Shown piece after piece: positions 9,276 through 52,895 of a stretch of 64,000 nucleotides of DNA (its first letter is position 1; each line of letters begins with the position of its first letter). The stretch comes from Candidatus Omnitrophota bacterium (GTDB lineage Bacteria > Omnitrophota > Gorgyraeia > Duberdicusellales > 4484-171). The notes under the pieces are model-generated. The model was not told where the DNA came from and searched no databases. It saw nothing but the letters and a program-made list of their open reading frames with translations. The DNA lies in assembly GCA_016935525.1 (NCBI GenBank), contig JAFGQU010000023.1, positions 897 through 64,896 of the forward strand, read 5' to 3'. The translations under genes and the position numbers were made by a program.

Positions 9276-9743
9276 TTACGCGATACCTTTTTCCTTAAAC
9301 ATGCGCCAGATAATATCGAAAATGCCGACAATACCGAGGATCTTACCTCCGCTGTCGACTACCGCCAGACGTTCTTTTTGATGCATCCGCATGTGTTTGT
9401 ATGCCTGTTCGATAGTCTGCGTCTCTTTCGCCACGACGAAGTGTTTATCCATGATGTCATCGACGATAATCAGGTCGCCCATCGAGGGTACCACGTCAAG
9501 ATCGAATACATCCTGATCCATCTCCATAAACGGCAGGGAACGAAACAGTTTTGCCTGTTGCGGACGCAATATATCGAGAAGATTTTCCGGATAGACCATC
9601 CCAATAAGGATATCTTGATCATCGACAACAGGAATGAGCGGGTGGGTATGGAATTGTTTAAAAATATCCAAAAGAGCGCGTAATGAAGTAGAACGTTTCA
9701 CTTTGATGACGCTGGTGTTCATCACCTCTTTCACATTGACCAT
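9276..9743 (-). CDS. CBS-domain pair protein
   Basis: Two CBS motifs (VMNTSVIKVKRSTSL.., ..LAVVDSGGKILGIV). Confidence 0.7.
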   Translation of the reverse strand: MVNVKEVMNTSVIKVKRSTSLRALLDIFKQFHTHPLIPVVDDQDILIGMVYPENLLDILRPQQAKLFRSLPFMEMDQDVFDLDVVPSMGDLIIVDDIMDKHFVVAKETQTIEQAYKHMRMHQKERLAVVDSGGKILGIVGIFDIIWRMFKEKGIA

Positions 9744-9775
9744 AACGGTATCCTCCGGTTAAGGGGTATGTATTA

Positions 9776-10231
9776 TCATTTCTCGAACTGACGGATGATC
9801 TGGATCACCTGGTCCGCCGATTCCGCGGACACCAGCGCCTCACGGAACGCGCTGTTCATCAGCAGTTTGGATAATTCGGCAAGGACTCTTAAATACAGGT
9901 TCAGTTCGCGCGGGTCGGCACCCATGAGGAAGATAAGGTTCACCTTTTCCCCGTCAAGCGCGTTAAAATCGATACCTTCTTTTGATTTGCCGAATCCGAT
10001 CACGAACCCTTTTATACTCGCGGTACGGGCGTGAGGGATAGCGACTTTATGGCCGATACCGGTGGAACCGAGAGATTCCCGTTCCAGGATATCTTCGATA
10101 AACTTAGCTTTATCGGCGACTTTTCCGCTTGAAGTAAGTTCTTCGGCGATCTCTCTCACCGCGGCCTCTTTATCGGCGGCGTTAAGGTCCATCACACAAT
10201 AGTTTTTCTTGAGGTATTCGGAAACTTTCAT
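9776..10231 (-). CDS. ptsN: PTS EIIA-Ntr-like nitrogen regulatory protein (fructose-type IIA)
   Basis: GIGHKVAIPHART active-site His motif. Confidence 0.7.
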   Translation of the reverse strand: MKVSEYLKKNYCVMDLNAADKEAAVREIAEELTSSGKVADKAKFIEDILERESLGSTGIGHKVAIPHARTASIKGFVIGFGKSKEGIDFNALDGEKVNLIFLMGADPRELNLYLRVLAELSKLLMNSAFREALVSAESADQVIQIIRQFEK

Positions 10232-10262: not shown

Positions 10263-10934
10263 TCACGCGTACGTTTTTATATTCTGTAATAACCCGTAAC
10301 AGAGCAGTTTGTCGCCTTCTTCCAGCACGTCATCGGCATGAGGGAACGCGATCAATCTATTTTCTCTTTGAATAGAAAGGACCAGGATATCTTTTTTGAT
10401 AAACCCGGCCGCCGAAAGGCTTTGGCCGAGCTCTTCGGTATCTTTAGTCATCGTAAGCTGAGCGATCCCGTACCCTTTAGGCAGACGGAACAGTTCTTCC
10501 AGGGTCTGCTGTTCCACCAGCCCTTTGGCGACGATCCGTTTCTCGATGAACCGGTTCAGCCAGACACTGAACTCGCGTAATGTGGTCGCTTTGTAGAGTA
10601 ACGCGATAGATAAGATCAACAGTAACGCTTTCCACAGGTCGTTTAAGATATTATCTTTCCCGAATGAAACGAATAAGCCGGCGATGACCGATACGAACCC
10701 GATCCGGCCTAAGATCATCAACACGATCACGGTCTTACGCCGGATATCGTCTTCCAGGACCGGTTCGGCCTCTTTAGTGGTAAACCCGGTCCCGGTAAAC
10801 GCCGATACCGATTGAAACCACGCGGTCTCCTCATCCAGACCGGTCATCTTAAGGACAACCGTGGCGATGCGCACGATGAGCACGAACAGGATGACGATAA
10901 TGATCAGCGGGATGACGGTAGAGATGATCCCCAT
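10263..10934 (-). CDS. membrane protein with C-terminal TrkA-C (RCK_C)-like domain
   Basis: 3-4 N-terminal TM helices then soluble domain ending ..EEGDKLLCYG. Confidence 0.5.
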   Translation of the reverse strand: MGIISTVIPLIIIVILFVLIVRIATVVLKMTGLDEETAWFQSVSAFTGTGFTTKEAEPVLEDDIRRKTVIVLMILGRIGFVSVIAGLFVSFGKDNILNDLWKALLLILSIALLYKATTLREFSVWLNRFIEKRIVAKGLVEQQTLEELFRLPKGYGIAQLTMTKDTEELGQSLSAAGFIKKDILVLSIQRENRLIAFPHADDVLEEGDKLLCYGLLQNIKTYA

Positions 10935-10936
10935 AG

Positions 10937-11239
10937 TTATTTAAGCCTTAACGCCAGTTCGACGAGCGTCTGGACAATAAAATTTTTCGCAAACAAAATG
11001 ATCAAAAACGCGATCAACGGAGAAAGGTCGATACCGATTTTCATATTGACCGGCAATATCCTTCTGATCGGATACAGGATCGGTTCGGTCGTCTTATTAA
11101 GGAACTGTACGATCGGGTTATACGGGTCCGGGTTTACCCAGCTGATCAGGGCGCGGATAAGGATCAACCAGTACAGGATGGTCAATACCACGTCCAGTAT
11201 CTTCGCCAGCGAAATAAGGAGATTGCTCAACACAAACAT
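10937..11239 (-). CDS. yggT: YggT family membrane protein
   Basis: LILIRALISWVNPDPYNPIVQFL signature. Confidence 0.75.
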   Translation of the reverse strand: MFVLSNLLISLAKILDVVLTILYWLILIRALISWVNPDPYNPIVQFLNKTTEPILYPIRRILPVNMKIGIDLSPLIAFLIILFAKNFIVQTLVELALRLK

Positions 11240-11242
11240 ATT

Positions 11243-11332
11243 TTAGTCTCTAGTCTCTGGTTTCCGGTTTTTAGTCTAACCGCTAGCCGCTAAACGCTTA
11301 CCGCTCGCTATGAGCGTATCGTACGCGAATAG
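11243..11332. repeat. word-like tandem repeats (GTCTCTAGTCTCTGG; CCGCTAGCCGCTAAACGCTTACCGCTCGCTATGAGCG)
   Basis: Read directly; contains TAGTCTAACCGCTA, the reverse complement of the 16-mer AATAGCGGTTAGACTA found at 241 and 31203. Confidence 0.6.
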
Positions 11333-39278: not shown

Positions 39279-40418
39279 TCATTCAAAGTCGGCATATATC
39301 TGCCCGATATCGATACCAGAGATGACCTGTGATTTATATTTCTCCGCAAGCGAGTATTTCGAATGGAGAAATATTTCGTTTTCTATCCCGTTTTTAAGCG
39401 CCAAATACACTTCGATAAAAGCCGAAAGGTCATCGACGGCTTTGACCAACTTCCCGTCACGTTCGACGCCGCCGCCGGGAGTGACTTTATCGCTGTATTC
39501 GTTTTCGGTAAACGATCTCATCTGCGCGTGCCATCCGTTCGGTAACAGTTTGTATATTTTCGTTTCCATCTCTTCTTTCTCGTAGTCTTTGATCAGTTCG
39601 TCGATCCCTTCGACCGATTTTTTTACCGGATTGATGATATCCCGGGTCAATACTTCCGGCAGGTCATGGAACAGGCCGGTAAAATAGTTATTGATCGCCC
39701 GGGAACATGCCGCCTGTTTCTGTAAGGAGAAAAGGTAGGAGACGATAGCAATGATCAGCATATGCCCCAATACCGACGTCTTCGGCACCCTCCAGACATG
39801 CCCCCAGCGCAACTGAAACCTCAGTTGCCCGCAGACGTCCACGAATTCACCAAGCGCGTCGTCTTTCAGCAACCGCTGCATACTGGAAAGGTCGCCATAT
39901 TTTTCCTGTTTGGCAAGCAGGTCGTTTTTTATCTCTTCAATCGCATACCCTTGAGGGTTTGCCCGTTCAATGATATTAAATTCCCACTTAGTGGCGTAAA
40001 AATGAGCGGCACTGATGATCCGGCGGTTCACATTCCGTTCGGTATCTAACAGGTACGATTTGAATCTCAGACAGAATCCCTCCCCCAATGGCGAGATGAC
40101 CGGGTATAACTTTTTGTATACCCACTCATTCAGGTCTTCGTACTTTTTCCGGTTTTCCTTTATACGGTGAAAGAGCGGCGGTTTAATATCGGTCAAAACC
40201 GTACGTTGAAGGAATTCGAATATCCCGCCTTCGACGATCTGGACCCAATCGAGCTTTTCGTTACCGGCGTCTTCTTCGCACCGGCCCAGCACATAGGCAA
40301 TGATCATCTTATGCGCCTGTTTATCAAGTTCGGTCAATTCGACCGGCCGGATCTGGTCATTCCACCGTTGCATACTTGCCGCGTCGAATATTTTTAAAAG
40401 GAGCGCTTTTCTTACCAT
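39279..40418 (-). CDS. HD-domain phosphohydrolase (YfbR-like 5'-deoxynucleotidase C-terminal half with about 170 aa N-terminal extension)
   Basis: H..HDLPE and downstream D motifs. Confidence 0.6.
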   Translation of the reverse strand: MVRKALLLKIFDAASMQRWNDQIRPVELTELDKQAHKMIIAYVLGRCEEDAGNEKLDWVQIVEGGIFEFLQRTVLTDIKPPLFHRIKENRKKYEDLNEWVYKKLYPVISPLGEGFCLRFKSYLLDTERNVNRRIISAAHFYATKWEFNIIERANPQGYAIEEIKNDLLAKQEKYGDLSSMQRLLKDDALGEFVDVCGQLRFQLRWGHVWRVPKTSVLGHMLIIAIVSYLFSLQKQAACSRAINNYFTGLFHDLPEVLTRDIINPVKKSVEGIDELIKDYEKEEMETKIYKLLPNGWHAQMRSFTENEYSDKVTPGGGVERDGKLVKAVDDLSAFIEVYLALKNGIENEIFLHSKYSLAEKYKSQVISGIDIGQIYADFE

Positions 40419-40445: not shown

Positions 40446-40793
40446 TTATTTTTTGTTCTCAGACAGCACATCAAGAAGATAAGATATGATCTGGCTGCGA
40501 TGTTCCGATGCGACTCTGATAAATTTTACGCCGACAAGGAACCGGAAATCTTTTTCCCGGCGCCAGCGGCACCATACCACTCGCCCGACGACCACGACCG
40601 GTTTTTTGAATTCGGAAAGAGCTATCTTAAGTTCAAGGATCGTCCCGGGCTCAAGCTTTTGGAATGCCGGCAGACGCACCCCGCCCTCACTGATATCGTG
40701 GGTAAGCGAGGCGGTCTTAAGTGCTCCTTTAAGTATACGGTATTTCAGCTTTACCGTATCCCCTACTCTGACATAACGTCTTCTTTCGGCCAT
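40446..40793 (-). CDS. PilZ domain protein (c-di-GMP receptor)
   Basis: RRRYVR and DISEGG motifs. Confidence 0.7.
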   Translation of the reverse strand: MAERRRYVRVGDTVKLKYRILKGALKTASLTHDISEGGVRLPAFQKLEPGTILELKIALSEFKKPVVVVGRVVWCRWRREKDFRFLVGVKFIRVASEHRSQIISYLLDVLSENKK

Positions 40794-40830
40794 AGAATAC
40801 TATCCCGCAAGTACCTGAAGAATCGATCGG

Positions 40831-41286
40831 CTATTCCACGACGATCGCCGCGATATCTTCACGTATCGGTTTTAATGCGATCTTTAAGCGCCCGTTATCC
40901 GTCCGGATGACGAAAAATTTGATCTCGGAAAGCCAGCGATACACGGTGGCAACCCCCCGGTCAGTCAAAGGGATCTCCCCGAAATCGTCGGGATTTATGA
41001 ATTGGGGACACTTTTCTCTATCGATCTCGGCCATATAGACCCGTCCTTCGTTGGTCTTAAAATAATACCGGTCACCGGCGGCATCAAGCCTTATCGCGCG
41101 GTTGCTGTTATTGGTAAGCGAGAGACGAAAATAATATTCCGAATAACCTGCCCCCCGGTCGCCGTAGCCGTAGCTTAAGAAAGCTTTCACCTGGCCTTTC
41201 GTCCCCATCATGATCAATTCTTCTCTTGAATACGCACACGGCACAGCGAATAAAAGACAAAAAATGAAAACAAATATTTTTTTCAT
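40831..41286 (-). CDS. secreted hypothetical protein
   Basis: Signal peptide MKKIFVFIFCLLFAVPCAYS. Confidence 0.5.
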   Translation of the reverse strand: MKKIFVFIFCLLFAVPCAYSREELIMMGTKGQVKAFLSYGYGDRGAGYSEYYFRLSLTNNSNRAIRLDAAGDRYYFKTNEGRVYMAEIDREKCPQFINPDDFGEIPLTDRGVATVYRWLSEIKFFVIRTDNGRLKIALKPIREDIAAIVVE

Positions 41287-41394
41287 ACGGTCCTCTCCTC
41301 CGGTTTTTCATAATTTTTTATACCGCACCACAATGATACACCGGGTCATATATTTCGTCAACAGAAAGTGACACAGACACCTGCAGGCCAGACA

Positions 41395-41625
41395 GTCACA
41401 CGACACATCCCGCACCGACATTTACGTATCTAGCGGGACCCCGCTGTATAAAAATATTACGGAGCGGGGCGTCACATAGTCACACGTCTAAGATACATAA
41501 TCAATACAAAATGAGCATTTAGCAATTAGCAATTTAAAATCAGAGATTCCTCTTGTTTTTATCATTGTGAACTGCTAATTGTTAATTGAACATTGCTAAT
41601 TTCCTATTCCCCTAATCGCTATCTG
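41395..41625. repeat. composite dispersed repeat, copy 3 (GTCACACGACAC + hairpin insert CCCCGCT..AGCGGGG + GTCACATAGTCACACGT + ATCAATACAAAATGAGCATTTAGCAATTAGCA + TGCTAATTGTTAATTGAACATTGCTAATTTCCTATTCCCCTAATCGCTATC)
   Basis: Direct comparison with copy 2. Confidence 0.7.
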
Positions 41626-41673
41626 CGATCATCAGGTTACCATCTGTGATCATCTGTGTAAGCCCAAAGGGAT

Positions 41674-41687
41674 CGGAAACGTTTACA
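41674..41687. promoter_or_regulatory. palindromic site cGGAAACGTTTACa
   Basis: One of three G(G/T)AAACGTTT(A/C)C sites in the window. Confidence 0.4.
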
Positions 41688-41782
41688 TAAAAATCCGGCG
41701 ATGGCCTTGAAAGGTTATCCCGCGATAGGTTATAAATGAATTGAAATAGGTACCTGCAGCCACAGAAGAGGTCCTAAAATAA

Positions 41783-41820
41783 AAGGAGGGAAATAAAAAA
41801 TCCCTCCTTTATTTTTTTAT
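41783..41820. terminator. bidirectional intrinsic terminator AAGGAGGGA-AATAAAAAA-TCCCTCCTT + TATTTTTTTAT
   Basis: Perfect 9 bp stem flanked by A-run and T-run. Confidence 0.7.
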
Positions 41821-41960
41821 CTTTTTCCGGAAGGTTCGCGGGGATATTCTCATAACCCAGGATGGCAAGGGGAGAAGGTCACGCTACATCACTATAGCGT
41901 ATCGGGCGGGGTCGCATTGCAAGAAGAACAATCGGGGCATCAGTTAAAAAATAAATATTT

Positions 41961-42188
41961 TTACGCGAGTCCGGTAATTGTTCTTTTTCTTATTTTACCA
42001 TGGATGATTCTTGCCGTCTCCGGACTGATATCTTCCCAGAAACCGGAAACCGTACGTCGTTTCACGCGTCCGTCATGATGGATAAAGAACGCGTATTCAT
42101 AGAAACTGTTTACGTACTTGGCATAGACAAGTAACCCTCCACGGATAGGGCGTACTTCACTGACTTTTAGATTATCCAAGGTATACAT
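41961..42188 (-). CDS. small hypothetical protein (75 aa)
   Basis: ORF only. Confidence 0.35.
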   Translation of the reverse strand: MYTLDNLKVSEVRPIRGGLLVYAKYVNSFYEYAFFIHHDGRVKRRTVSGFWEDISPETARIIHGKIRKRTITGLA

Positions 42189-42285
42189 TCATCCCCCCTC
42201 TCGACCTTAGGTTCTCTTTAGAACGAAAACGATAATTTTACACACCTGCGTCTCAAAGAACGTATCGATTCGATAAGCCTTCGGC

Positions 42286-42561
42286 TTATTTCACCCGCCG
42301 GTCTTTCAGGCGGTAGACCAATAACCCCGCGATAAGGATAAGCGGGATGATATATATTAAAAAATGAAAGACAAAAGTAGTCACTACCTGAAATATCGAA
42401 AGGCTCAACAACGCGTCTATTCCCGAAAGAAACGTATCCGGCTCTTTTAATCCCCAGAACCGCCAGCTTCCGAAAAGGTCATACCGTATCGCGTACCATA
42501 CCCATACGATACAGATGGCGACCAAAGTACCCCATATTACTTTACTCTGTTTCCTGTTCAT
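42286..42561 (-). CDS. small membrane protein, hypothetical
   Basis: Start chosen at the ATG preceded by AGAGGATGAAGTC to avoid overlapping the GGDEF gene; 3 TM segments. Confidence 0.4.
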   Translation of the reverse strand: MNRKQSKVIWGTLVAICIVWVWYAIRYDLFGSWRFWGLKEPDTFLSGIDALLSLSIFQVVTTFVFHFLIYIIPLILIAGLLVYRLKDRRVK

Positions 42562-42649
42562 GACTTCATCCTCTAATACTATCATTCTATTAGCTTTTGA
42601 ATTAAAAAGAAAGCATAATCTTGTAAACCCGGTATTTTCTCCTCTATAC

Positions 42650-45082
42650 TCATCCATGGAGCACATTTTCTTCTTTAGCGATGACCTGTAAAAACCGATC
42701 GACGATCTCAGGATCAAACTGCGTACCGGCTCCTTCTCTGATTATATTCAAAGCGTCTTGGTGAGAAAACGCCTTCCGGTAAGCGCGGTCGGAAATAAGC
42801 GCATGGTACACATCGGCGACGGCGATTATCCGCGCCCCGACAGGGATATCTTCTCCGCTCAATCCATGAGGATACCCGGTCCCGTCCCACCATTCATGAT
42901 GATGAAGGATAGACGGTATGAGATCATGCAAATACTGTATCGGACGGATGATATCGACCGCTATATTGGGATGTTTTTTTATCTCATCGTATTCTTTCCT
43001 GGTGAGCGCGGATTTTTTAAGAAGGATCTTCTCGCTGATACCGATCTTACCCAGATCGTGAAGGATCGCCGCCTGTTTTATACATTCGACTTCCTCTTTA
43101 GGCAGATTCAAGCTATGGGCGATCTCGGCGACATAATGTTCGGTATTTTCGGTATGCGTGCCGGTATAGTGGTCTTTCACTTTAATGGTCTTGGCAAAAG
43201 CGAATACCGCCTCGATCAGGCTCTGGTTCGCCCGTTTATTCAGCCGGTTGATCTTTTCCTGCAAAAAGGAGATATCGTTAAACGCGTTCACCTGGCCAGA
43301 TAAGTTCAACCGGCGGTCTGTATATAAGTCTCCGGAAGTATAGATACGATTGCCGCCGTCTTCTTTTACTTTATTCAGGATACGGTCGACTGATTTAAAC
43401 AGATCCATCGGTTCAAACGCCCCGTCTTCGGGATACGATACGATGGCGCTGCTCAGTTTTAATTTCACTTTGATTTTATGGTTCCCGAAATCATATAAAT
43501 GGATATGATCGAATATCCTTTGTACAAGCTTTAGCGCGGTCACCCGGTCGGTCCCCGGCGAAATAATGATGAATTCTTCGCCGCCGAAACGCACCGCGCT
43601 GTCGTAGCGGCGGACTTTCTTTTTTAATACCCGGGCAAACTGCCTGAGCACCAGATCGCCGAATTGATGGCCGTAGACATCGTTGATAGATTTGAAATAA
43701 TCCAGGTCTATCATGATGATCGAAAGCGGATGATGCGATCTTTTCGCGCGATAGAATTCCCGAATGAGCACTTCTTCGAAATAACGATGATTATACAATC
43801 TGGTCTGAGAATCGATGAGCGATAACCGGTGAAGTCGCTTATTCGACTTGACGAGTTGACGGTTCAATAATTCCCGTTCCTCCTCGATCCGTTTACGCTG
43901 GCTGATATTACGCACGTATTCGACGACTCCCCGAGACCGGCCTTGATTATCTACAATCGGGAACGCATACAGTTCAAGCGTCCCGGTTATCCCGTCAGGC
44001 TGGGTGAGCGGGACTTCATACATCTCCAGTTTATTCGTACGCAACGCTTTCAGTGTAGGGCAACGGGAACAGGCTTTTTTTCGACCGTGATACGCTTCAT
44101 AACATTTCTTACCTTCTAAAGGCAAGGCATGAGCGTACCATCGTTTCATCGCTTCGTTCACCCGTACGATATTGAGCCCGGTATCAAGCACACTGATGCC
44201 GTCCTGGATACTGTCAAATACGGTACTCAAAAATTTATCGCGCTCGCGCAGGGTTTCCTGGGCCTTTTTACGCTGGCTGATATCACGGACAACGGCAAGG
44301 ATCCGTTTTTCATCGCCGCCGGTCACATATTTCAAGTTCACTTCCACCCAGAATTCTTTTCCCCAACGGTCTTTCGCCAGCCACTCGAATACCTGCGGGC
44401 CTTCCTTTATCGCCCGGCGTAACCACAGCTCTACTTCTTTCTGGGTATAGGGAGGCTTGTTGGCGCTGATATCGGCGACACTGAGCGTTACCGCCTCTTC
44501 ACGGGTAAATCCGTACAGCTCGATCATGCGGTCGTTGACATCGATTATCTTCCCGGTTTTGGGGTCATGGACAAAAATAGCGTCACTGGCCGAATTAAAT
44601 ATATTGTGGTAATTTTTTGCGGCAATCATAACCTTCTCTTCGGCAGCTTTGCGTTCGGTCACATCGCGGATGACCGCAAGGATAAAAGCCGATTTACCGG
44701 ATTTATCGGTGATTGCCGATGCGCTGATCTCCCCGATAAAAGTGCTTCCGTCTTTTCTTACCAGCTGATAAGGAAGGTCGCGGGTCTGGCCGTCGCGGAA
44801 TGTCCTCTGGATATTTTTGATCGCGCGGATCCTCTCTTTAGGAGCAAAAAACTGTAGACCGTGACGGCCGGTTACTTCTTCAAGTTTTTCGTATCCGTAT
44901 AATTTGAGAGCCTGGGAATTAGCCATCCGGACCTTGAGGTGGGCATCGGTAAGGACGATCGCATCCGGAGAGATCTTCACCAGAGCGCTGTAAAGGTCCA
45001 ATCCGTTATGCGGGATTTTCTGGGGATCATCACTATAACGGGAACTCTCATCCTTGAATCTAAATAACCGTTTAAATACCAT
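42650..45082 (-). CDS. PAS/PAS/PAS-GGDEF-HD-GYP bifunctional c-di-GMP cyclase/phosphodiesterase
   Basis: RFGGEEFII (GGDEF), HD..HHEWWDGTGYP (HD-GYP), multiple PAS/PAC. Confidence 0.85.
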   Translation of the reverse strand: MVFKRLFRFKDESSRYSDDPQKIPHNGLDLYSALVKISPDAIVLTDAHLKVRMANSQALKLYGYEKLEEVTGRHGLQFFAPKERIRAIKNIQRTFRDGQTRDLPYQLVRKDGSTFIGEISASAITDKSGKSAFILAVIRDVTERKAAEEKVMIAAKNYHNIFNSASDAIFVHDPKTGKIIDVNDRMIELYGFTREEAVTLSVADISANKPPYTQKEVELWLRRAIKEGPQVFEWLAKDRWGKEFWVEVNLKYVTGGDEKRILAVVRDISQRKKAQETLRERDKFLSTVFDSIQDGISVLDTGLNIVRVNEAMKRWYAHALPLEGKKCYEAYHGRKKACSRCPTLKALRTNKLEMYEVPLTQPDGITGTLELYAFPIVDNQGRSRGVVEYVRNISQRKRIEEERELLNRQLVKSNKRLHRLSLIDSQTRLYNHRYFEEVLIREFYRAKRSHHPLSIIMIDLDYFKSINDVYGHQFGDLVLRQFARVLKKKVRRYDSAVRFGGEEFIIISPGTDRVTALKLVQRIFDHIHLYDFGNHKIKVKLKLSSAIVSYPEDGAFEPMDLFKSVDRILNKVKEDGGNRIYTSGDLYTDRRLNLSGQVNAFNDISFLQEKINRLNKRANQSLIEAVFAFAKTIKVKDHYTGTHTENTEHYVAEIAHSLNLPKEEVECIKQAAILHDLGKIGISEKILLKKSALTRKEYDEIKKHPNIAVDIIRPIQYLHDLIPSILHHHEWWDGTGYPHGLSGEDIPVGARIIAVADVYHALISDRAYRKAFSHQDALNIIREGAGTQFDPEIVDRFLQVIAKEENVLHG

Positions 45083-45108
45083 CTCCTCCTACCAGCCTTA
45101 AAAATATA

Positions 45109-45146
45109 AAGAGGTAGCCACCTCTTACCGTGGCTACCTCTTTTTA
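45109..45146 (-). terminator. strong hairpin AAGAGGTAGCCAC-CTCTTACC-GTGGCTACCTCTT + T-run inside the 5' leader of the GGDEF-HD-GYP gene
   Basis: 13 bp perfect stem; T-rich on both flanks; only about 25 nt from the gene RBS. Confidence 0.6.
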
Positions 45147-45267
45147 TCAACACTGTGGGGGATTTTCCCTCGATTTACCCCCTTTTTTAATGTAACATAT
45201 CCAGCCGGCACACGTCAAGGGCATGGCCATAAATTACTGGAATACAGTAGGTTATGAACAGAAAATT

Positions 45268-45283
45268 CTGGAAACGTTTCCAG
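45268..45283. promoter_or_regulatory. 16 bp perfect palindrome CTGGAAACGTTTCCAG
   Basis: Read directly. Confidence 0.45.
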
Positions 45284-45318
45284 GACTACCCATAAATCCC
45301 CGGTGAGAACACGCCCCA

Positions 45319-45651
45319 CTATCCGGCCGACTTTAATACTCTCAGTAATATACGTTGGTCGGCGGGAGATATCTTAATAAATTCTACTCCAACCATAAAG
45401 GGATGTTGTTCATTGGTGACCGGATAAGACCAGAGCACCTTGCCTGACGCGTCGATTGTAGCGTCCGAATCGAGGATATGGATCTGCATCTCGATGATCA
45501 CTCCGTCGGCTAAACGCTGCGGAATAGAGAAACTGATCCCTCCCTGACTGACGTTCTTACTTTTAGTCTCAGTACGCAGGAACCCTTTCTGGACTCTATA
45601 GGATATCCGTACGTTCTTATTGATCCTTACAAATCTGCGTCTTTCTTCCAT
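45319..45651 (-). CDS. PilZ domain protein (paralog of 40446-40793)
   Basis: RRRFVR and NVSQGG motifs. Confidence 0.7.
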   Translation of the reverse strand: MEERRRFVRINKNVRISYRVQKGFLRTETKSKNVSQGGISFSIPQRLADGVIIEMQIHILDSDATIDASGKVLWSYPVTNEQHPFMVGVEFIKISPADQRILLRVLKSAG

Positions 45652-45674
45652 ATTCTTTTAATTAAAGGGCACCT

Positions 45675-46256
45675 TCAGCCTTTAAGATTATCGGCATTTT
45701 CCTTGAGCATATTACAAAAAAGCCATCCCTGTTCGATCGCATCGTTTAAAGCGATATGACTTTTTGCTGATTCGTCAAACCAGTGTTTCGGCATACTGCT
45801 TTTGGTGATCGAGAGAAAAGGTTTTTTTAAAATAGCCATAGCATAGGTCTTGATATCCAGAGCGACAAAAGAAAACGGGTTTTCTCCGGTAAACTTGATC
45901 AGGTACCAGTTAATAAACATAAAGTCAAAAGATGCCGGGTATCCGACAAATACGGGTTTGGCGGGAAGATCTTTTAACCAGCGAAGATATTTTTTCATCG
46001 CGTCTTGAGGGGTTTCGGGATCACGGCGGGATTCTTCCCACGCGGTTTTCTGAGTTTCCCACCATTTCATCGTTTCGGGATCTTGCCGGGCGCCGGGTAA
46101 CGGCTGCAAGTTAACGGTAAACGTGGCGATTTTCTCTTTTTGAGCGGTAAATGCGGCCGAACCGAAACTGAGCATAGAGAATTCACCCGGTATCGGCCCG
46201 TCAGTCTCTATATCCGTACTTACATACACTTCTTTTTGCGGATTATTTTTTTGCAT
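45675..46256 (-). CDS. DEDDh 3'-5' exonuclease (DnaQ superfamily; Rv2179c-like)
   Basis: DIETDG, FDFMF and HIALNDA motifs. Confidence 0.65.
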
Positions 46257-46277
46257 AGATAAAAAAGGAAAGGACTA

Positions 46278-46757
46278 TTACCAGTAAAGCTGTTGAAACT
46301 GCCGGGAATAACGGTTCACCCATTCAAAAGAAGCTTCTTCTATAGTTATGTCGTCACCGGACTGGATACTGCGCAGATCACGGTATTCACTGATCAAATA
46401 CATCTGCTCGATAAGGCGTACCCGGAACGCTTCCGAAGAAGTCTCAAAACTGACTCCGATATTATACAAGCCGCCCTTTTCACTCTCCGAACAATGGACC
46501 ACTTTGCCTTTGACATTATATACTTTATCCTCAAACGGCATTTTGATCATGATCAGAGAATCTATCTCTGCCGGATGTTTCGCAGAAAAGAGTAACCCGC
46601 CCCGGGAGATATTGCGGGTATGGACATTCCCCTGATGCAGGGCCTGAGAGGCGCCCCGTTTGATCACCCGGTAACTTAACGGGAAACACATCGGGTGACG
46701 GATAAACTGGCGGCGTTCACTGGTCTTTTTATGTTGTTTCATAGTATCCGGTTCCAT
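46278..46757 (-). CDS. PilZ-like protein with conserved C-terminal extension
   Basis: RRQFIR, NISRGGLLF; C-terminus RLIEQMYLISEY..QQLYW shared with 47552-48025. Confidence 0.65.
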   Translation of the reverse strand: MEPDTMKQHKKTSERRQFIRHPMCFPLSYRVIKRGASQALHQGNVHTRNISRGGLLFSAKHPAEIDSLIMIKMPFEDKVYNVKGKVVHCSESEKGGLYNIGVSFETSSEAFRVRLIEQMYLISEYRDLRSIQSGDDITIEEASFEWVNRYSRQFQQLYW

Positions 46758-46823
46758 ATTTTTATATTCAATAATACTATCTCCTCCTCACTTGGTCAAG
46801 GGCCAAATTCACAAAGAAGATAT

Positions 46824-47360
46824 TTATTTTTTCTCATAGGTCCCGATAAGTTCGGTATAATCCAACACCGAATCTTCCATAGCTCTTAAAAGGTCCTCTT
46901 TACCGGCACCGACGGTAAGATCAAGTCTCTTATCGAGCGCATACAATTTGAAAAAATAACGGTGGCTTCCCGAAGGAGGACAAGGCCCGCCGTAACTGGT
47001 CCGTTTAAAATCGTTTATCCCTTGAATCCCCGGCACACTGTCCTCGGAGATCTTCTTAGTATCCGGCGGGATATTAAATACGACCCAATGGACCCAGGTC
47101 CCCATCGGGGCATCGGGATCATCGACGATCAAAACTAACGCTTTGGTCCGGGGCGGGATGTGTTCTATTTTAAGCGCGGGATTTATATCCTTCCCCTGAC
47201 AGGTAAACTTTCGCGGGATGACTTCGTTATGATTAAATTCAAGAGCGTGAAGCGTCATCGTCTCAGCCGGCTTTCTCGCATAAGAATATGACGAGAGCGA
47301 TAACACACACAGGGCCCCTACTATAATACGTATTTCTCTCTTGCCTAAAAAAGCGCCCAT
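46824..47360 (-). CDS. YbhB/YbcL family PEBP (Raf kinase inhibitor-like) protein, secreted
   Basis: DPDAP and GPCPPSGSHRYFFKLYALD signatures. Confidence 0.8.
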   Translation of the reverse strand: MGAFLGKREIRIIVGALCVLSLSSYSYARKPAETMTLHALEFNHNEVIPRKFTCQGKDINPALKIEHIPPRTKALVLIVDDPDAPMGTWVHWVVFNIPPDTKKISEDSVPGIQGINDFKRTSYGGPCPPSGSHRYFFKLYALDKRLDLTVGAGKEDLLRAMEDSVLDYTELIGTYEKK

Positions 47361-47374
47361 CTTTTCTCCTTATC

Positions 47375-47515
47375 CTAATGCGTATGGTTTTCTAAAAGTT
47401 CCTGGATATCTTTCAACTCATGGTGTAATTCATCGAATTCCCGTCGTATCGAGAAATCACTACTGAATTGATTGATCAGGATCCCGATTAGAATAATCAA
47501 AATGATCCACGACAT
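47375..47515 (-). CDS. unannotated small membrane-anchored protein (46 aa: MSWIILIILIGILINQFSSDFSIRREFDELHHELKDIQELLENHTH)
   Basis: ATG preceded by AAAAGGGGGTAAT RBS; below the 60 aa track cutoff. Confidence 0.35.
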   Translation of the reverse strand: MSWIILIILIGILINQFSSDFSIRREFDELHHELKDIQELLENHTH

Positions 47516-47551
47516 ATTACCCCCTTTTTGCGGCCCTTATTCCGAATCAGA

Positions 47552-48025
47552 TTACCAATAGAGTTTTTGAAACTTCTGGGAATATCGACGCAACCACTCA
47601 CGGGATGCCTCAGGCAGGGAAATCTCACGGCCCAGCTGTTGCTTACGCAATTGCCAGTACTCACCGATCAAATACATCTGTTCGATAAGCCGGACACGAA
47701 AAGCGTCGCTGACATCCTGAAAGTTTACCCCCACCAGGTAATGGTTTTCTCGAGAGTCTTTCGTACAATGAACGACTTTGGCATGTACGGTATATACTTT
47801 ATTGCGAAAAGGGATCTTTATTTTAAGTACAGCGTTTTTGGTAAGCACTTCGCGCGTAGCGAACAAAAGCCCGCCCCGGCTGATATTAAGAGTCCGGGAT
47901 TTGCCTTTCGTTGATTTTTGAGACAGACAGGACCTTTTTTTTACGACCTGATATTCAAACGGGAGGCTGATCGGATGACGTATTGATTGTCTGCGTTCCT
48001 GAGGGTCTTGCTTACGTGCGGCCAT
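47552..48025 (-). CDS. PilZ-like protein, paralog of 46278-46757
   Basis: RRQSIR, NISRGGLLF, C-terminus RLIEQMYLIGEY..QKLYW. Confidence 0.65.
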   Translation of the reverse strand: MAARKQDPQERRQSIRHPISLPFEYQVVKKRSCLSQKSTKGKSRTLNISRGGLLFATREVLTKNAVLKIKIPFRNKVYTVHAKVVHCTKDSRENHYLVGVNFQDVSDAFRVRLIEQMYLIGEYWQLRKQQLGREISLPEASREWLRRYSQKFQKLYW

Positions 48026-48121
48026 CGGTTATTCTTTCGGTTAAAATCTATTCAGATTATAATACTATTTCCGAAAGAAACGGTCAACCTGATTGATTTT
48101 ATTCTGGGCTACCGGAATGGA

Positions 48122-48988
48122 TCAAAAAGAGAGGTAGTCTTCTCGGGAAGAGAGAGCGTGTATCGCCCGGGTGATCCGGGATAATGACCGTTCGTCATGC
48201 TGGCGTTTAGTATCCAGCGAACAATACTCAGAAAGCGCCTCGGTCGCGTATGCCGAGAGCGTTTGATATATTTCGTTTTCCCGGGAATTTTTATTTTCCA
48301 GAGCTACAAACACGTTAAAGATATGCTGTACCGTTTCAGCCCGGAACGTTTGGTTATATTCTACGGTAAAAAAATCGCAGAGTGTCCGGGCGATCACTAC
48401 CGGGTCCTCATCGATCATCATCATAATCTCCTCTGACGCGGCGCGTACCGTTTCTTCCCTGCTGGTAAATCCATAAAGTACCAGCGGGACGACCATTTTT
48501 TTTCCCTGCGCGGCGATGAGCTCTTTCTTGGCACTACACAGGCTGTCATCGCCTCTTGATTCCAGGGAAAGGATTATCCCGCCGATCACCGAATAGTAAT
48601 TTAAAATGATGCTTAATTCCTCGCCGCCGATACTTTTCTCCATATGTACCTGATCGATACCTTTAAGTACTTGATGAATAAGTTGAGCGCTCTTGTCCAC
48701 GGTACGTTCGTCGCGGGAGCCCCACAACTCAGCCAACAGTAACGCTTCCTCATCATTTAACGGCTGGAAATTATCGAGTTTTTTCTGGATAAGCGATAAC
48801 AATTTTAATTCTTCGGCAACAACCGCGGGTTCTTCCCGAGTGATCTTTTCCCAATCGACCCACTGGGCGTTATTGACCGCTTTAGCCAGAAGGTTTTCTT
48901 CGGCATACGCCGAGAATTGATAGGTATCCTTACGGCAAGGCCCCATCACGATAATAATCACCAGGCTCAACAAAAATATCCGTTTCAT
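48122..48988 (-). CDS. secreted hypothetical protein
   Basis: Signal peptide MKRIFLLSLVIIIVMGPC. Confidence 0.5.
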   Translation of the reverse strand: MKRIFLLSLVIIIVMGPCRKDTYQFSAYAEENLLAKAVNNAQWVDWEKITREEPAVVAEELKLLSLIQKKLDNFQPLNDEEALLLAELWGSRDERTVDKSAQLIHQVLKGIDQVHMEKSIGGEELSIILNYYSVIGGIILSLESRGDDSLCSAKKELIAAQGKKMVVPLVLYGFTSREETVRAASEEIMMMIDEDPVVIARTLCDFFTVEYNQTFRAETVQHIFNVFVALENKNSRENEIYQTLSAYATEALSEYCSLDTKRQHDERSLSRITRAIHALSSREDYLSF

Positions 48989-49140
48989 CTGTCCGCTCCG
49001 TGTATGACCGTTTTTTTATAGTGCTCCATAACCTCAACTTATTTATACTATTTTCTTTTTAAGGATTTCAATACGCCGGCAGTAAATACCCTCCCCGGCC
49101 ATAAAACGGGCAATAAAACAAAAGTTAATTCTGAAATTTT

Positions 49141-49152
49141 GTAAACGTTTAC
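49141..49152. promoter_or_regulatory. palindromic site GTAAACGTTTAC in a divergent promoter region
   Basis: Read directly. Confidence 0.4.
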
Positions 49153-49272
49153 TTGAGGTTTTTAAGCCGCGGCAGGGGGGGACCGGATAAAACCACCGGT
49201 AGCCTATCTACCTTAAGAAAAGATACTGGACGTCGATCCGTAAAGATAAAATATTTATGTTATAATCGGATT

Positions 49273-50118
49273 ATGGCTTATTATGCGGTTCGTTGTGTGA
49301 TGATCATCTCGTTATTGCTTGGCGGATGTTGTTTTACTCCTTATCGGTTCAATTATCTTGATGAGGACCGGCCCCGGTATCTGTCTTCAACCGGGTACCG
49401 AAAAGGGATCTCTCCGGGGAAAAACATCAAGGTCGTCTCTTATAATATCAAATATTCCCGACATCCCGAAGCGCTCCGGCTCTTTAAGAAAGAAATATCA
49501 TTGTCCGATGCCGATATTATCTGTTTGCAGGAGATGGATATAAAATCCGTAAAGGAGATCGCCTCTTACCTTGATTATAATTATGTGTATTATCCTTCCA
49601 GCCATTCTTCCCGATGCGGCCGGGATTTCGGGCCGGCGATACTCAGCAAATTCCCGATAGAAAAAACCCGCAAAATCATGTTGCCGCCTTATCAGGAAAA
49701 GAAAATGTATAAAATACAGCGTATTGCCGTAATAGCCCAAATAACCTTAGATTCTGCCCCTTTGACCGTCGTCTCTACCCACCTGGGAGTCTTTATCTCC
49801 CCCGACGAAAGGATAACACAGGCCGAGACCATCCTTGATGCTCTCGATGGATATCCCGCCCCTTATATCATCGCCGGAGATTTTAATACGTTCAATACCC
49901 GGCACCGCAAGGCTGTCTCTCCAGTACTGGCACAGGCAGGTTTTTCTCTGGCGACTTCCTGTGTTAAATGGACATACAAACACTGGTATTTATTTAACAA
50001 AAAAGCTCTGTACGATTATATATTTGTGAAAGGGGCCGCAGTCAAAGAGTGCGGGTATGTGGCTGACCTTAAGGCGAGCGACCATATGCCGATATGGGCC
50101 GTACTCGCGTTACCGTGA
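49273..50118 (+). CDS. endonuclease/exonuclease/phosphatase (EEP) family protein, probably exported (start taken at ATG 49273; TTG 49153 is an alternative)
   Basis: VVSYNI..LQEM..SDH EEP motifs; hydrophobic N-terminus LLLGGCCF. Confidence 0.65.
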   Translation: MAYYAVRCVMIISLLLGGCCFTPYRFNYLDEDRPRYLSSTGYRKGISPGKNIKVVSYNIKYSRHPEALRLFKKEISLSDADIICLQEMDIKSVKEIASYLDYNYVYYPSSHSSRCGRDFGPAILSKFPIEKTRKIMLPPYQEKKMYKIQRIAVIAQITLDSAPLTVVSTHLGVFISPDERITQAETILDALDGYPAPYIIAGDFNTFNTRHRKAVSPVLAQAGFSLATSCVKWTYKHWYLFNKKALYDYIFVKGAAVKECGYVADLKASDHMPIWAVLALP

Positions 50119-50649
50119 AAAAAGTACTGACCGGTACGTATCATAAACCGGAGTATTGAAACATACGATCATCACTTTATCCACCGACGGGTATTTTTCG
50201 AGGCATTCTTTGATCTTGGCCAAGGCAATCGGTACGGCCGCATCAAGCGGGAACCGGTACGCCCCGGTACTGATCGAAGGAAACGCGATCGTCTTTATCC
50301 GATACGGTTCAACGAACCGAAAACAGCTTTCATAACACCTCCCAAGCAATAATTCTTCACCATGGATGCCGCCGCGCCATACCGGCCCTACGGTATGGAT
50401 CACCCATTCAGCCTGCAGGTTATACCCTTTGGTGATCTTCGCCTCTCCCGTAGCGCAGCCGCCTACACGGCGGCATTCTTCAAGAAGCCCGGGCCCTGCG
50501 GCCCGATGGATCGCTCCATCGACCCCGCCGCCGCCTAAAAGTGAATTGTTCGCGGCGTTGACAATCGCATCAACCGCTATGCTGGTAATATCTCCTTCGG
50601 TAATCTCTATCCGGTCAAACTTCATTTTTATCTCTACCGGCAGATTCAC
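50110..50649 (-). CDS. macro-domain protein (O-acetyl-ADP-ribose deacetylase, YmdB-like)
   Basis: GDITS..VNAAN..GGGGVDGAIH motifs. Confidence 0.8.
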   Translation of the reverse strand: MNLPVEIKMKFDRIEITEGDITSIAVDAIVNAANNSLLGGGGVDGAIHRAAGPGLLEECRRVGGCATGEAKITKGYNLQAEWVIHTVGPVWRGGIHGEELLLGRCYESCFRFVEPYRIKTIAFPSISTGAYRFPLDAAVPIALAKIKECLEKYPSVDKVMIVCFNTPVYDTYRSVLFSR

Positions 50650-50718
50650 TTAAAAAACCGTATATTATTCCGCCGTTTTTATAATAACAGAGATAGGGCT
50701 GGATAGAAACGATTAATG

Positions 50719-51102
50719 CTATTTTTTATCCTCGAGGATAGGGAGGATCATCCGGTAAAGTTTAGGGAATTCGAACGGTTTACTAAGAAAAGCATCCGCC
50801 GGGATGTCAATTTGAGACAATTCAGTAAGACATTGTCCGGTACAAAAAATAATGGGGATATCTTTGGTAACCGAATCTTCTTTTAGCACGTGGGCCGTTT
50901 CAATTCCGTCCATCACCGGCATTATCCCGTCAAGGATGATCAGGTCCGGTGTGCGTTTTTGAACCTCCTCCAAGGCCTCCTTTCCGTTCTTAGCTTCTTT
51001 GATAGAGAATCCCCGCCTCTGGAGAATCAGGTTTAAACAATAGCGTAAGAGATCATCGTCATCGACAATCGATATGACTGATTTGCCCTGCTTGATCTGC
51101 AT
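50719..51102 (-). CDS. single-domain response regulator (REC)
   Basis: IVDDDD..DLIILD..K pattern; start at internal ATG. Confidence 0.7.
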   Translation of the reverse strand: MQIKQGKSVISIVDDDDLLRYCLNLILQRRGFSIKEAKNGKEALEEVQKRTPDLIILDGIMPVMDGIETAHVLKEDSVTKDIPIIFCTGQCLTELSQIDIPADAFLSKPFEFPKLYRMILPILEDKK

Positions 51103-51196
51103 CCAAAACCTCTGGATATCCCGGGCACCAATCAAAGTATACCACCTTACGCATAAGGTGTCAATATAGTAAATTTTATGTTACCTTTATATCGTT

Positions 51197-51418
51197 ATGG
51201 AGAAAGACATTCGGGTAAATTACGCGAAACGTTTGCGGGCACTCCGTAAAAAACACGGGTACACTCAGCAGAAGCTTGCTGAACGCGCCAACATAGAATA
51301 CAAACATATTCAACGGCTGGAAAGTAAAAATCCCTGCGACGTGAAACTCAGCACTCTGGGAAAAATCGCCAAAGCCTTCAAAATCCCTCTTGCCAAATTA
51401 CTTGACTTTGACGACTAA
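51197..51418 (+). CDS. XRE-family helix-turn-helix transcriptional regulator
   Basis: YTQQKLAERANIEYKHIQRLE HTH. Confidence 0.75.
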   Translation: MEKDIRVNYAKRLRALRKKHGYTQQKLAERANIEYKHIQRLESKNPCDVKLSTLGKIAKAFKIPLAKLLDFDD

Positions 51419-51430
51419 CCTCCATCTAAC

Positions 51431-52178
51431 CATATCACACCTCGTAGGTGTGATATGCGGTTAAAACCATTTAATCAAAAAGAAAATCTTTTATCTTCGC
51501 TAATTGACGCTGATAAGAGATCCTTCCTTCTACAAACTGGCGATATCTTGTCGGCTTGATTGCCAATAAATCCTGATACTGGCAGATCTTCTCTTTCTGA
51601 AATTTACGGAAAACATATTCTCGATAAGAAGAAGCAGACCAATCTTCTGGATTATTGATAAATCCAGCAGTGACCGGATTAAGATGAACATAGCGAGTCA
51701 GATGCAATAATTGTTCGTCACTCTCTACAAGCACCCTTTTAAACCTTCCTTCCCACAACGGCCCTTTTCGTTTATATTTAGTGTTGAAATACTTAGAATA
51801 GCTATTTAGTATCTTACCCATAAATGCTGAGATACCATGTTCTTTTAATTGTTTGAGAATAAAATGCAAGTGAGTCGGCATAATACAGTAAGCAATAATA
51901 TTTACAATTTTCTCTTCGGGATTAGTTGACTCGATCCCCCCTACAAGGCTACTTTTCTGTCGCGTAAACCGATCTCTATAAGAAAACCTTATATTGATAC
52001 TATTCTGATAATATAAAATCAATCCTTCTATACGCATATAATCACGCAGATTGTTAAATATCCTAAAACCAGCAATGCTTTTTGTAAAAACGTGATATAC
52101 GCCCTCATTCACTAAAGACATATTTACTCCTTTCCTTTTCCCTCCCCTATATCACACCTACGAGGTGTGATATAGGGG
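51431..52178 (-). mobile_element. IS200/IS605-like or RAYT element: HUH Y1 transposase gene bracketed by 27 bp and 35 bp palindromic hairpins (CATATCACACCTCGTAGGTGTGATATG; CCCCTATATCACACCTACGAGGTGTGATATAGGGG)
   Basis: Hairpins read directly, 14 nt and 22 nt from the gene ends; shared 25 bp core. Confidence 0.65.
51471..52121 (-). CDS. IS200-like / REP-associated tyrosine transposase (HUH Y1 family)
   Basis: HUH motif CIMPTHLHFIL and catalytic Tyr region GPLWEGRFKRVLV..LTRYVHLNPV; AAGGAG RBS. Confidence 0.7.
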   Translation of the reverse strand: MSLVNEGVYHVFTKSIAGFRIFNNLRDYMRIEGLILYYQNSINIRFSYRDRFTRQKSSLVGGIESTNPEEKIVNIIAYCIMPTHLHFILKQLKEHGISAFMGKILNSYSKYFNTKYKRKGPLWEGRFKRVLVESDEQLLHLTRYVHLNPVTAGFINNPEDWSASSYREYVFRKFQKEKICQYQDLLAIKPTRYRQFVEGRISYQRQLAKIKDFLFD

Positions 52179-52187
52179 GAATAACGG

Positions 52188-52895
52188 TCAGAGTAAGCCG
52201 CGGTCAATAAAGCTATAATACACATCGTCGCCGATAATGATGTGGTCTAATACTTTTATCTGTAATGCGTCTCCGGCTTTTGTTAATGCCGCGGTGAAAT
52301 CCCGGTCCTCTTCGCTGGGCTGAGGATTTCCGGAAGGGTGGTTATGAACACAAATAACAGCAACAGCAAAGTATTCAATGGCCTTCTGAAAGATCTCACG
52401 CAATATCGGCTGGACATGGTTCACCGTTCCTTCGGTAGCCTCGATTATTTCAATCACCCGGTTCCGGCTATCAAGAAGTATTATTTTAAATACTTCCTTT
52501 TTTAAATCCCGCAGACGAGGCATCAATAACCGGGAGATATCTTTTGAGGATTTTATCTGAGGCCGATCTTTGTTTTTCCCGGCAATAAACCGCCGGGATA
52601 TCTCTAACGCCGCTCTTATCCGGGTGATCTTTGCTTTCCCCAGCCCTTTGACCGCCTGCCAACGCGAAAAATCGATATGCGCCATATTACGAAATCCCTG
52701 AAATTCCTGCATGATCCGACGAGCCAGGTCCAATGCGCTCACCCCTTTTGTCCCATTTCCCAGAAGGATTGCTAACAACTCCGCATCAGAAAGAGTATGT
52801 TCTCCATACTTTAACAAGCGTTCACGTGGACGGTCATCGTCAGCCCACGATTTTATCCCGGCTCCATACATTTTTCTTATTTTTTCTCTTTTCAT
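52188..52895 (-). CDS. radC: RadC-like JAB/MPN domain protein
   Basis: HNHPSGNPQPSEED JAMM motif, HhH N-terminus. Confidence 0.85.
   Translation of the reverse strand: MKREKIRKMYGAGIKSWADDDRPRERLLKYGEHTLSDAELLAILLGNGTKGVSALDLARRIMQEFQGFRNMAHIDFSRWQAVKGLGKAKITRIRAALEISRRFIAGKNKDRPQIKSSKDISRLLMPRLRDLKKEVFKIILLDSRNRVIEIIEATEGTVNHVQPILREIFQKAIEYFAVAVICVHNHPSGNPQPSEEDRDFTAALTKAGDALQIKVLDHIIIGDDVYYSFIDRGLL

Follow-up and report, generated by a model that had tools for sequence, protein, structure and literature searches.

Proteins in which an HD-GYP domain is combined with PAS, GAF and GGDEF domains represent a described architecture (bioRxiv 10.1101/2021.11.05.467447), and the motifs by which PilZ domains bind cyclic di-GMP (c-di-GMP), RxxxR and [D/N]hSxxG (h, hydrophobic residue), have been defined (bioRxiv 10.1101/814665). 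The clearance of the linear dinucleotide pGpG by a subset of exoribonucleases is likewise established (PMC6256023). The exonuclease (Exo) of the cyclic-oligonucleotide-based antiphage signalling system (CBASS) is reported to be dinucleotide-specific and to degrade neither DNA nor RNA, and its characterised representative prefers 2'-5' over 3'-5' linkages (bioRxiv 10.1101/2025.03.04.641389). The present analysis concerns a cluster of minus-strand genes spanning about 8.5 kb (positions 40446-48988), in which four PilZ genes lie around a gene for a PAS x3-GGDEF-HD-GYP enzyme, together with genes encoding a DEDDh exonuclease, a PEBP protein and several small or exported proteins. The cluster is part of a window of 64,000 nt, the whole stretch of DNA analysed, taken from contig JAFGQU010000023.1 (positions 897 to 64,896, forward strand) of the Candidatus Omnitrophota bacterium assembly GCA_016935525.1. 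Omnitrophota are uncultured and often ultra-small bacteria, and a search of a full-text literature collection found no paper on c-di-GMP signalling in this phylum. On balance, the cluster probably represents a neighbourhood of c-di-GMP signalling genes that is specific to this lineage, consists of known parts and is divided into about four transcription units.

An original prediction, made from the sequence alone, had described the region as a dedicated second-messenger module with an envelope or secretion output. Every open reading frame (ORF) that it listed was confirmed on the minus strand, at the coordinates given below for each gene. The long PilZ, the exonuclease and the GGDEF-HD-GYP enzyme are the three cluster proteins for which GenBank names were retrieved, and all three were already annotated there.

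Four PilZ proteins clustered around one enzyme

The cluster encodes two long stand-alone PilZ proteins, PilZ 157 (157 amino acids (aa), positions 47552..48025) and PilZ 159 (159 aa, or 154 aa from the GenBank start, 46278..46757), and two short single-domain ones, PilZ 110 (110 aa, 45319..45651) and PilZ 115 (115 aa, 40446..40793). All four pass the PF07238 (PilZ) cut-off of 22.5 bits, with scores of 46.4, 48.5, 59.5 and 56.9 bits, respectively. Both c-di-GMP-binding motifs, as defined in bioRxiv 10.1101/814665, are present in each of them, namely RRQSIR and NISRGG in PilZ 157, RRQFIR and NISRGG in PilZ 159, RRRFVR and NVSQGG in PilZ 110, and RRRYVR and DISEGG in PilZ 115. Judged by these residues, all four stand-alone proteins carry the complete set of motifs, in agreement with their predicted role as c-di-GMP receptors. 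Their proposed division into two paralogous pairs is clear for the long pair, with 51% identity and the common C-terminus that the prediction had quoted, and weaker for the short pair, which is 34% identical and aligns at 72 bits, versus 33-36 bits for short against long proteins.

The density of these genes was estimated with a hidden Markov model (HMM) derived from the window's own four PilZ proteins, so that the resulting figures are rough. In the 64-kb window the model gave four matches, all of them within positions 40446-48988 and none in the remaining 55 kb, and it gave 15 non-anchor matches in 1.2 Mb of other Omnitrophota loci. About 0.1 extra PilZ gene is therefore expected per 8.5 kb (Poisson P ~2e-4 for at least three extra), and four PilZ genes in 8.5 kb correspond to roughly 40 times the local Omnitrophota background. 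The clustering of PilZ genes around one turnover enzyme is thus real and not a product of chance.

A long PilZ subfamily conserved across Omnitrophota

PilZ 159 has 98 homologues with 48-68% identity, all of about 150-165 aa, and their C-terminal ~50 residues (AFKVKLIEQMYLISEYRDL..G...SLQEAS.EW..RYS..F.RLYW) are better conserved than the PilZ barrel itself. In an AlphaFold2 model of the long PilZ (pLDDT 74), a barrel at residues 28-104 is followed by helices at 107-133 and 139-158; a PilZ barrel with a C-terminal two-helix extension is likewise the layout of PilZ 157. The best fold matches of the model in the PDB are PilZ domains (probability 0.9-0.98, E no better than 0.01), among the best of them the tPilZ structures 3rqa and 3ph1. 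The assignment of the long PilZ to the tetramer-forming tPilZ proteins was nevertheless rejected, since no PF16823 match was obtained (E up to 0.01) and the helices are C-terminal instead of inserted. When the C-terminal 55 residues were searched alone, 18 clusters were matched among 1.84 billion representatives. A mobile domain was also rejected: except for one short, partial alignment within a protein of 1,932 aa, these matches lie at or near the C-terminus of proteins of 45-275 aa. By these alignments, the C-terminal hairpin is a family-specific extension and not a shuffled domain.

When genomes were scanned for the long PilZ family, 80 species loci were retrieved, nearly all labelled Omnitrophota. 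The long PilZ is single-copy at 79 of the 80, and two copies occur only in the window and in its sister species (GCA_964483625.1, represented by loci L001 and L004; other L numbers denote loci of further species). Phylogenetically, PilZ 159 is placed as the orthologue of a phylum-wide Omnitrophota family. PilZ 157 and its 156-aa partner in L004 form a separate long branch of the tree, which indicates that PilZ 157 is a lineage-specific, fast-diverging duplicate. One promoter-like element, TTGACC-N17-TAT(T/G)AT, is found in front of each of the four long-PilZ genes, the two of the window (46771..46799 before PilZ 159 and 48059..48087 before PilZ 157, both TTGACC-N17-TATTAT on the minus strand) and the two of L001 (upstream of 6036 and 7351), with TTGACC and TAGTAT invariant; this suggests that the promoter was duplicated together with the gene.

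At the other Omnitrophota loci, 11 of the 13 extra PilZ matches are located within 1.5 kb of the long PilZ. Genes of c-di-GMP enzymes were found near the long PilZ in five further species, comprising HAMP-HD-GYP genes that adjoin it in L049 and L059, and GGDEF genes directly upstream in L022, at 0.8 kb in L008 and at 2.3 kb in L046. This recurrent proximity to PilZ genes and to genes of c-di-GMP enzymes speaks for a genuine role of the long PilZ family in c-di-GMP signalling, and the window cluster is the extreme case within a phylum-wide tendency. The subfamily itself, undescribed and conserved across the phylum, is new here.

A short PilZ gene stands directly beside the long one in at least nine other species, and these short proteins represent five or more families with no relation to one another (L006, 2468-4537; L041, L049, L039, L067 and L042, ~9430-10001; L047, L057 and L058, ~10740-11250). 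In about 17-22 of the 80 species, the long PilZ gene is placed between an SNF symporter gene with a PC4-like 77-aa gene and the division and cell-wall genes mraZ-rsmH-ftsL-ftsI-murE (for example L073, L082 and L078, of the L013-L082 subset, within ~3 kb on either side of position 10001). In L003 (7243-10477) and L019 (4896-10465), a glycogen-phosphorylase-type gene is found upstream of the long PilZ, no more than a few kb away; in L003 a GalT-like gene overlaps the long PilZ start, and in L019 a PEBP gene is found 1 kb upstream.

The PAS x3-GGDEF-HD-GYP enzyme

The central enzyme (810 aa, 42650..45082) is cytoplasmic, being devoid of any transmembrane segment. Its GGDEF domain was recognised by PF00990 (133 bits) and TIGR00254 (156 bits), its HD-GYP part by the HD_5/HD models (PF13487, 132 bits), and three PAS domains were detected, as had been predicted. 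The active-site stretch RRYDSAVRFGGEEF at residues 491-504 contains GGEEF at 500, with an RRYD (RxxD) inhibitory site (I-site) five residues upstream, and the phosphodiesterase motifs HDLGK and HHEWWDGTGYP are located at 675 and 728, respectively. The HD-GYP part aligns with the solved phosphodiesterase chains 5z7c (E 2e-35), 4mcw (E 1e-33) and 4r8z (E 1e-28). With all catalytic and allosteric motifs intact, the protein is predicted to be a bifunctional c-di-GMP synthase and phosphodiesterase. A tblastn search of the window with its sequence detected no other GGDEF, HD-GYP or PAS gene. The PAS-(GAF)-GGDEF-HD-GYP architecture is very common in Omnitrophota, with 738 matches below 1e-50.

The third PAS domain contains a Cys/His cluster, CYEAYHGRKKACSRCP, possibly a site for sensing metals or redox state. 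A PAS protein encoded beside the long PilZ in L034 (7889-8515) has a similar C..H...C....C cluster.

The DEDDh exonuclease

The exonuclease gene (45675..46256) is separated from the flanking PilZ 159 and PilZ 110 genes by gaps of 21 and 23 nt. Its product was confirmed as an Rv2179c-like DEDDh 3'-5' exonuclease (PF16473, 33.5 bits versus a cut-off of 27), and across 12 homologues the residues D15, E17, D111, H167 and D172 do not vary. Orn, the oligoribonuclease, is also a DEDDh enzyme. The closest solved relative is PDB 7t2s, annotated as a 3'-5' exonuclease (E 8.8e-24), which we take to be Cap18, consistent with the Exo crystal structure from E. coli upec-117 in the CBASS preprint. The best PADLOC model is PDLC00753, the CBASS 'Effector Exonuclease' (E 5.9e-41). 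The similarity to Cap18 is strong in pairwise and model matches, and the residue equivalent to N97 is Pro in the exonuclease family, where the Asn of the usual DEDDh Exo II motif gives way to Pro.

The family comprises more than 3,300 members with 60-74% identity from Omnitrophota, Planctomycetota, Chloroflexota and Acidobacteriota. It is unusually conserved across these phyla, with invariant WW, YPxxFD, ALDIK, MPxxWFD and DAIEQGxLFCN blocks. A search of metagenomes with the exonuclease was uninformative, one short contig being the only match. A conserved linkage between exonuclease and PilZ genes was considered and rejected: the PilZ-like gene located 1.3-2.4 kb upstream of the exonuclease in L084 and L089 belongs to an unrelated family, and other genes lie between.

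Predicted transcription units and regulatory elements

According to consensus-level predictions of promoters and terminators, the region is likely not a single operon but consists of about four promoter- or terminator-bounded units: PilZ 157, a 46-aa peptide and the PEBP (unit 1); PilZ 159, the exonuclease and PilZ 110 (unit 2); the enzyme, a 123-aa membrane protein and a 75-aa protein (unit 3); and a 151-aa protein, PilZ 115 and an HD_3 protein (unit 4). In transcription order, these units are preceded by the gene of a 288-aa protein (48122..48988) with an N-terminal hydrophobic segment at residues 1-19, either a signal peptide or an anchor, whose 48% identical orthologue was found in L001/L004 only. 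All features described in this section are on the minus strand.

In unit 1, the 46-aa product (47375..47515, hydrophobic residues 1-23) is a predicted single-pass membrane peptide with a 70% identical orthologue that is called as a gene in L001. The PEBP (46824..47360) was confirmed as a YbhB/YbcL family member (PF01161, 141 bits versus a cut-off of 24; TIGR00481, 125 bits versus 57.75) with a signal-like segment at residues 10-23. Unit 2 ends with PilZ 110, whose orthologue in L001 is 52% identical. Between PilZ 110 and the enzyme, a terminator-like hairpin (CTGGAAACGTTTCCAG with a T-run, 45268..45283), conserved in L001, is followed by a TG-extended promoter-like element, TTGACG-N18-TACATT (45189..45218), in a block invariant between the window and L001, and then by a leader, the promoter-like element and the leader together lying at 45108-45218 in the window and at 8900-9075 in L001. 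The leader contains a GGGGG...CCCCC hairpin and, immediately upstream of the enzyme's ribosome-binding site, a 14-bp hairpin with a U-run (45108..45143). The 14-bp hairpin is kept in L001, where a 2-bp deletion is compensated on both arms, and no Rfam family corresponds to it; from its structure and position it is possibly an attenuator or leader element. The presence of a c-di-GMP riboswitch in the 236-nt and ~670-nt intergenic regions was rejected: with the Rfam c-di-GMP-I and -II models, the window gave no match at gathering score, and positions 40700-49300 gave none up to E 1.

In unit 3, the gene of the 123-aa membrane protein (42286..42657; two to three transmembrane segments) probably starts at 42657, giving an 8-nt overlap with the stop of the enzyme gene, as in L001, where a 121-aa gene encodes a counterpart of 52% identity. 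The soluble 75-aa protein (41961..42188) is the best conserved product of the cluster, with 84% identity in L001. The unit ends at an intrinsic-terminator-like hairpin (AAAGGAGGGA...TCCCTCCTTT with a T-run, 41776..41810) that has a counterpart hairpin in L001. The ~140 nt that follow this terminator align at ~70% with the end of the L001 contig in MAFFT, a similarity that blastn did not report. The stretch at 41371-41917, located between this terminator and the gene of the 151-aa protein, is ORF-free over ~550 nt and contains the short repeated motifs gatgatcacagatgg / gatgatcgcagatag and aattagca / aattgcta.

Unit 4 begins with a promoter-like element, TTGACG-N17-TATCAT (41333..41361), before the gene of the 151-aa protein (40831..41286), which has a predicted signal peptide (hydrophobic residues 1-22, then AYS). 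Downstream of PilZ 115 by 27 nt, and just outside the region originally delimited, lies the gene of an HD_3/YfbR-like phosphohydrolase (379 aa, 39279..40418; Pfam HD_3, 90 bits; YfbR-like, 79 bits), which probably belongs to the PilZ 115 unit. Its N-terminal half (190 aa) is uncharacterised, and a marginal PADLOC match to an oligonucleotide-cyclase model was obtained (E 0.006).

The hydrophobic segments of the 288-aa, 151-aa and 123-aa products agree with the secreted and small membrane proteins of the original prediction. The 288-aa and 151-aa proteins gave no Pfam, NCBIfam or PADLOC match, and, apart from the PEBP, the other small and exported cluster proteins, including the 123-aa and 75-aa ones, belong to no family in these three databases.

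Conservation and flanking genes

The entire cluster was found elsewhere only in the sister species, with 48-84% protein identity. At the 79 other long-PilZ species loci, neither the exonuclease nor the enzyme is encoded within 10 kb, and a PEBP gene occurs once (L019). The conservation in relatives on which the prediction depended therefore extends to the sister species and stops there. The upstream flank (49153-52895 in the window, 249-4894 in L001) encodes RadC, a Y1 (IS200-like) transposase, a helix-turn-helix (HTH) protein, a response regulator, a Macro protein and an EEP-family protein; KptA/Tpt1 (PTS_2-RNA) and DUF488 genes are found in the L001 flank only, so that the flank is variable. 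Twenty-two proteins encoded within ~5 kb of the cluster were scanned, and neither a CD-NTase (cGAS/DncV-like nucleotidyltransferase) nor a CBASS effector was detected among them.

Discussion

From the domains, motifs, fold, density, unit boundaries and distribution described above, we infer the activities, coupling and outputs of the cluster as follows. The PAS domains would respond to a cue inside the cell and thereby switch the enzyme between synthesis and hydrolysis of c-di-GMP, the GGDEF domain being responsible for synthesis, with product inhibition via the RxxD site, and the HD-GYP domain for hydrolysis. The resulting c-di-GMP level would be read by the four PilZ adaptors, acting through protein-protein contact, which in the long type would be made via the conserved C-terminal helical hairpin. 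The DEDDh exonuclease would most plausibly remove linear dinucleotides, either pGpG released by the HD-GYP domain or the cyclase intermediate pppGpG, in parallel to oligoribonuclease in other bacteria and to the CBASS relative in cyclic GMP-AMP (cGAMP) synthesis. The PilZ-Exo-PilZ spacing, the CBASS analogy and the known need for a pGpG-degrading enzyme together suggest, as a low-probability idea, a role of this exonuclease in clearing linear di-GMP. No link between Rv2179c and pGpG was found in the literature search.

Several observations weigh against such a coupled neighbourhood. Seven other exonuclease loci are in unrelated contexts, none with a GGDEF or HD-GYP gene; the neighbours there include an M48 peptidase with UvrD/AddAB, citrate synthase with FeoAB, carbamoyl-phosphate synthase and methionine synthase. 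The exonuclease may thus be a housekeeping enzyme that merely ended up in the cluster. The products of c-di-GMP hydrolysis are 3'-5' linked, which does not match the 2'-5' preference of the CBASS Exo, and YPxxFD is invariant in the window's exonuclease family where Cap18 has NASFD. Two close relatives of the enzyme, located beside a tRNA synthetase gene and beside dnaG-rpoD, have no PilZ gene nearby, and a conserved enzyme-PilZ linkage was thus not seen at these two loci. Finally, collinearity with the sister species extends into the flanks (RadC, Y1 transposase, HTH, response regulator, Macro, EEP). No gene order kept beyond the overall genome collinearity was found, and the synteny with the sister species consequently says little on selection for the cluster.

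These facts suit the explanation, rather unlikely as a whole, that the neighbourhood is coincidental: local duplication and rearrangement would have brought together genes of separate pathways, with the exonuclease, the PEBP and the exported proteins as bystanders. It would agree with the absence of the cluster from the 79 other species loci, with relatives of the exonuclease and the enzyme standing in unrelated contexts, with the separate promoter- or terminator-bounded units, with a variable flank (the Y1 transposase, and KptA with DUF488 in L001 only), and with a common enzyme architecture in a phylum that encodes many PilZ and PAS-GGDEF-HD-GYP genes. It accounts poorly, however, for a PilZ density about 40 times the local background and for the PilZ-Exo-PilZ arrangement with its gaps of 21-23 nt. 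Nor does it account for the location of most extra PilZ genes within 1.5 kb of the long PilZ, despite the unrelated short-PilZ families involved, or for the c-di-GMP enzyme genes near the long PilZ in five further species; because both kinds of gene recur there, selection for proximity is favoured. The explanation as a lineage-specific signalling neighbourhood takes in both the density and this recurrence.

The dedicated module with an envelope or secretion output that had originally been proposed would act through the PEBP, the exported 288-aa and 151-aa proteins and the small membrane proteins, and it appears improbable. In its favour, L001 retains these exported and membrane products, whose genes are interspersed among those of the PilZ proteins; translation of the 123-aa membrane protein is coupled to that of the enzyme; and a PEBP gene is again found near the long PilZ in L019. 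On the other hand, the collinear flanks, the 79 loci that lack both exonuclease and enzyme, the unrelated contexts elsewhere and the division into about four units do not bear out a dedicated module. As to its output, none of the exported and membrane proteins could be matched to a family concerned with secretion, pili, flagella, adhesins or polysaccharides, and the adjacent genes include none for secretion, pili, flagella or polysaccharides. The PEBP is also the only one of these products to be encoded near the long PilZ in other species. Periplasmic proteins would also be out of direct reach, as PilZ proteins are cytoplasmic and direct contact between the two is impossible. An anti-phage defence island, in which the exonuclease would be a CBASS-type accessory and the Macro, RadC, transposase and HTH genes would mark a mobile locus, is very hard to credit. 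The 'Effector Exonuclease' match in PADLOC, the Cap18 homology and the nature of the flanking genes favour it, but the twenty-two flanking proteins scanned include no CD-NTase or CBASS effector, the exonuclease family is widespread in housekeeping contexts, the base composition is not anomalous, and the other cluster proteins have no significant PADLOC match, the only further one being the marginal match of the HD_3 protein.

A more far-reaching combination of ideas is speculative and has a small chance of being right as a whole, namely that the Cap18-like enzyme is a hydrolase of linear dinucleotides (pGpG or pppGpG) that sets a c-di-GMP threshold, while the long PilZ is a phylum-wide core effector, possibly tied to cell division. 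The latter link comes from the position of the long PilZ gene directly upstream of mraZ-rsmH-ftsL-ftsI-murE in about 17 of the 80 species. If true, the 'catalytic-intermediate checkpoint' described for the cyclic GMP-AMP synthase (cGAS) of CBASS would extend to ordinary c-di-GMP signalling, and the exonuclease would fill the Orn-type role in Omnitrophota.

In more general terms, the cluster indicates the presence of a standard c-di-GMP toolkit in Omnitrophota and provides two leads, an undescribed PilZ subfamily conserved in the phylum and a Cap18-type exonuclease that may take part in c-di-GMP turnover. No part falls outside known families, and their arrangement is another instance of clustered c-di-GMP genes. 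Only the long-PilZ subfamily and the PilZ-Exo-PilZ operon might be worth specialist follow-up; otherwise this is an ordinary signalling-gene neighbourhood.

Compared with known systems, all four PilZ proteins resemble the canonical stand-alone PilZ receptors (MapZ/PA4608; PF07238) in possessing a single PilZ domain with RxxxR and [D/N]hSxxG. The long type is also modelled as a six-strand barrel followed by a helix, but differs in its second helix and in the strongly conserved ~50-aa C-terminus ending in LYW. With the tPilZ proteins (XCC6012, PF16823; bioRxiv 10.1101/814665) the long PilZ has in common a stand-alone organisation, a size of ~150-180 aa, two extra helices and, usually, one copy per locus or genome. 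It is unlike them in that the extra helices are C-terminal and not inserted, the c-di-GMP motifs are intact and PF16823 is not matched. The window enzyme shares architecture and motifs with known PAS/GAF-GGDEF-HD-GYP hybrids and has no architectural difference from them, although its translation is coupled to that of a small membrane protein and a conserved leader hairpin precedes its gene. Like the CBASS Exo/Cap18, the window exonuclease combines a DEDDh fold and full-length similarity with a location inside a cyclic-dinucleotide signalling cluster, whereas no CD-NTase is nearby and its family is usually found outside signalling or defence contexts. Finally, as with Orn and NrnA/B/C (PMC6256023), the window exonuclease is a small 3'-5' exonuclease and a candidate finisher of c-di-GMP degradation, although, in comparison with Orn, it belongs to another subfamily, the Rv2179c-like one.

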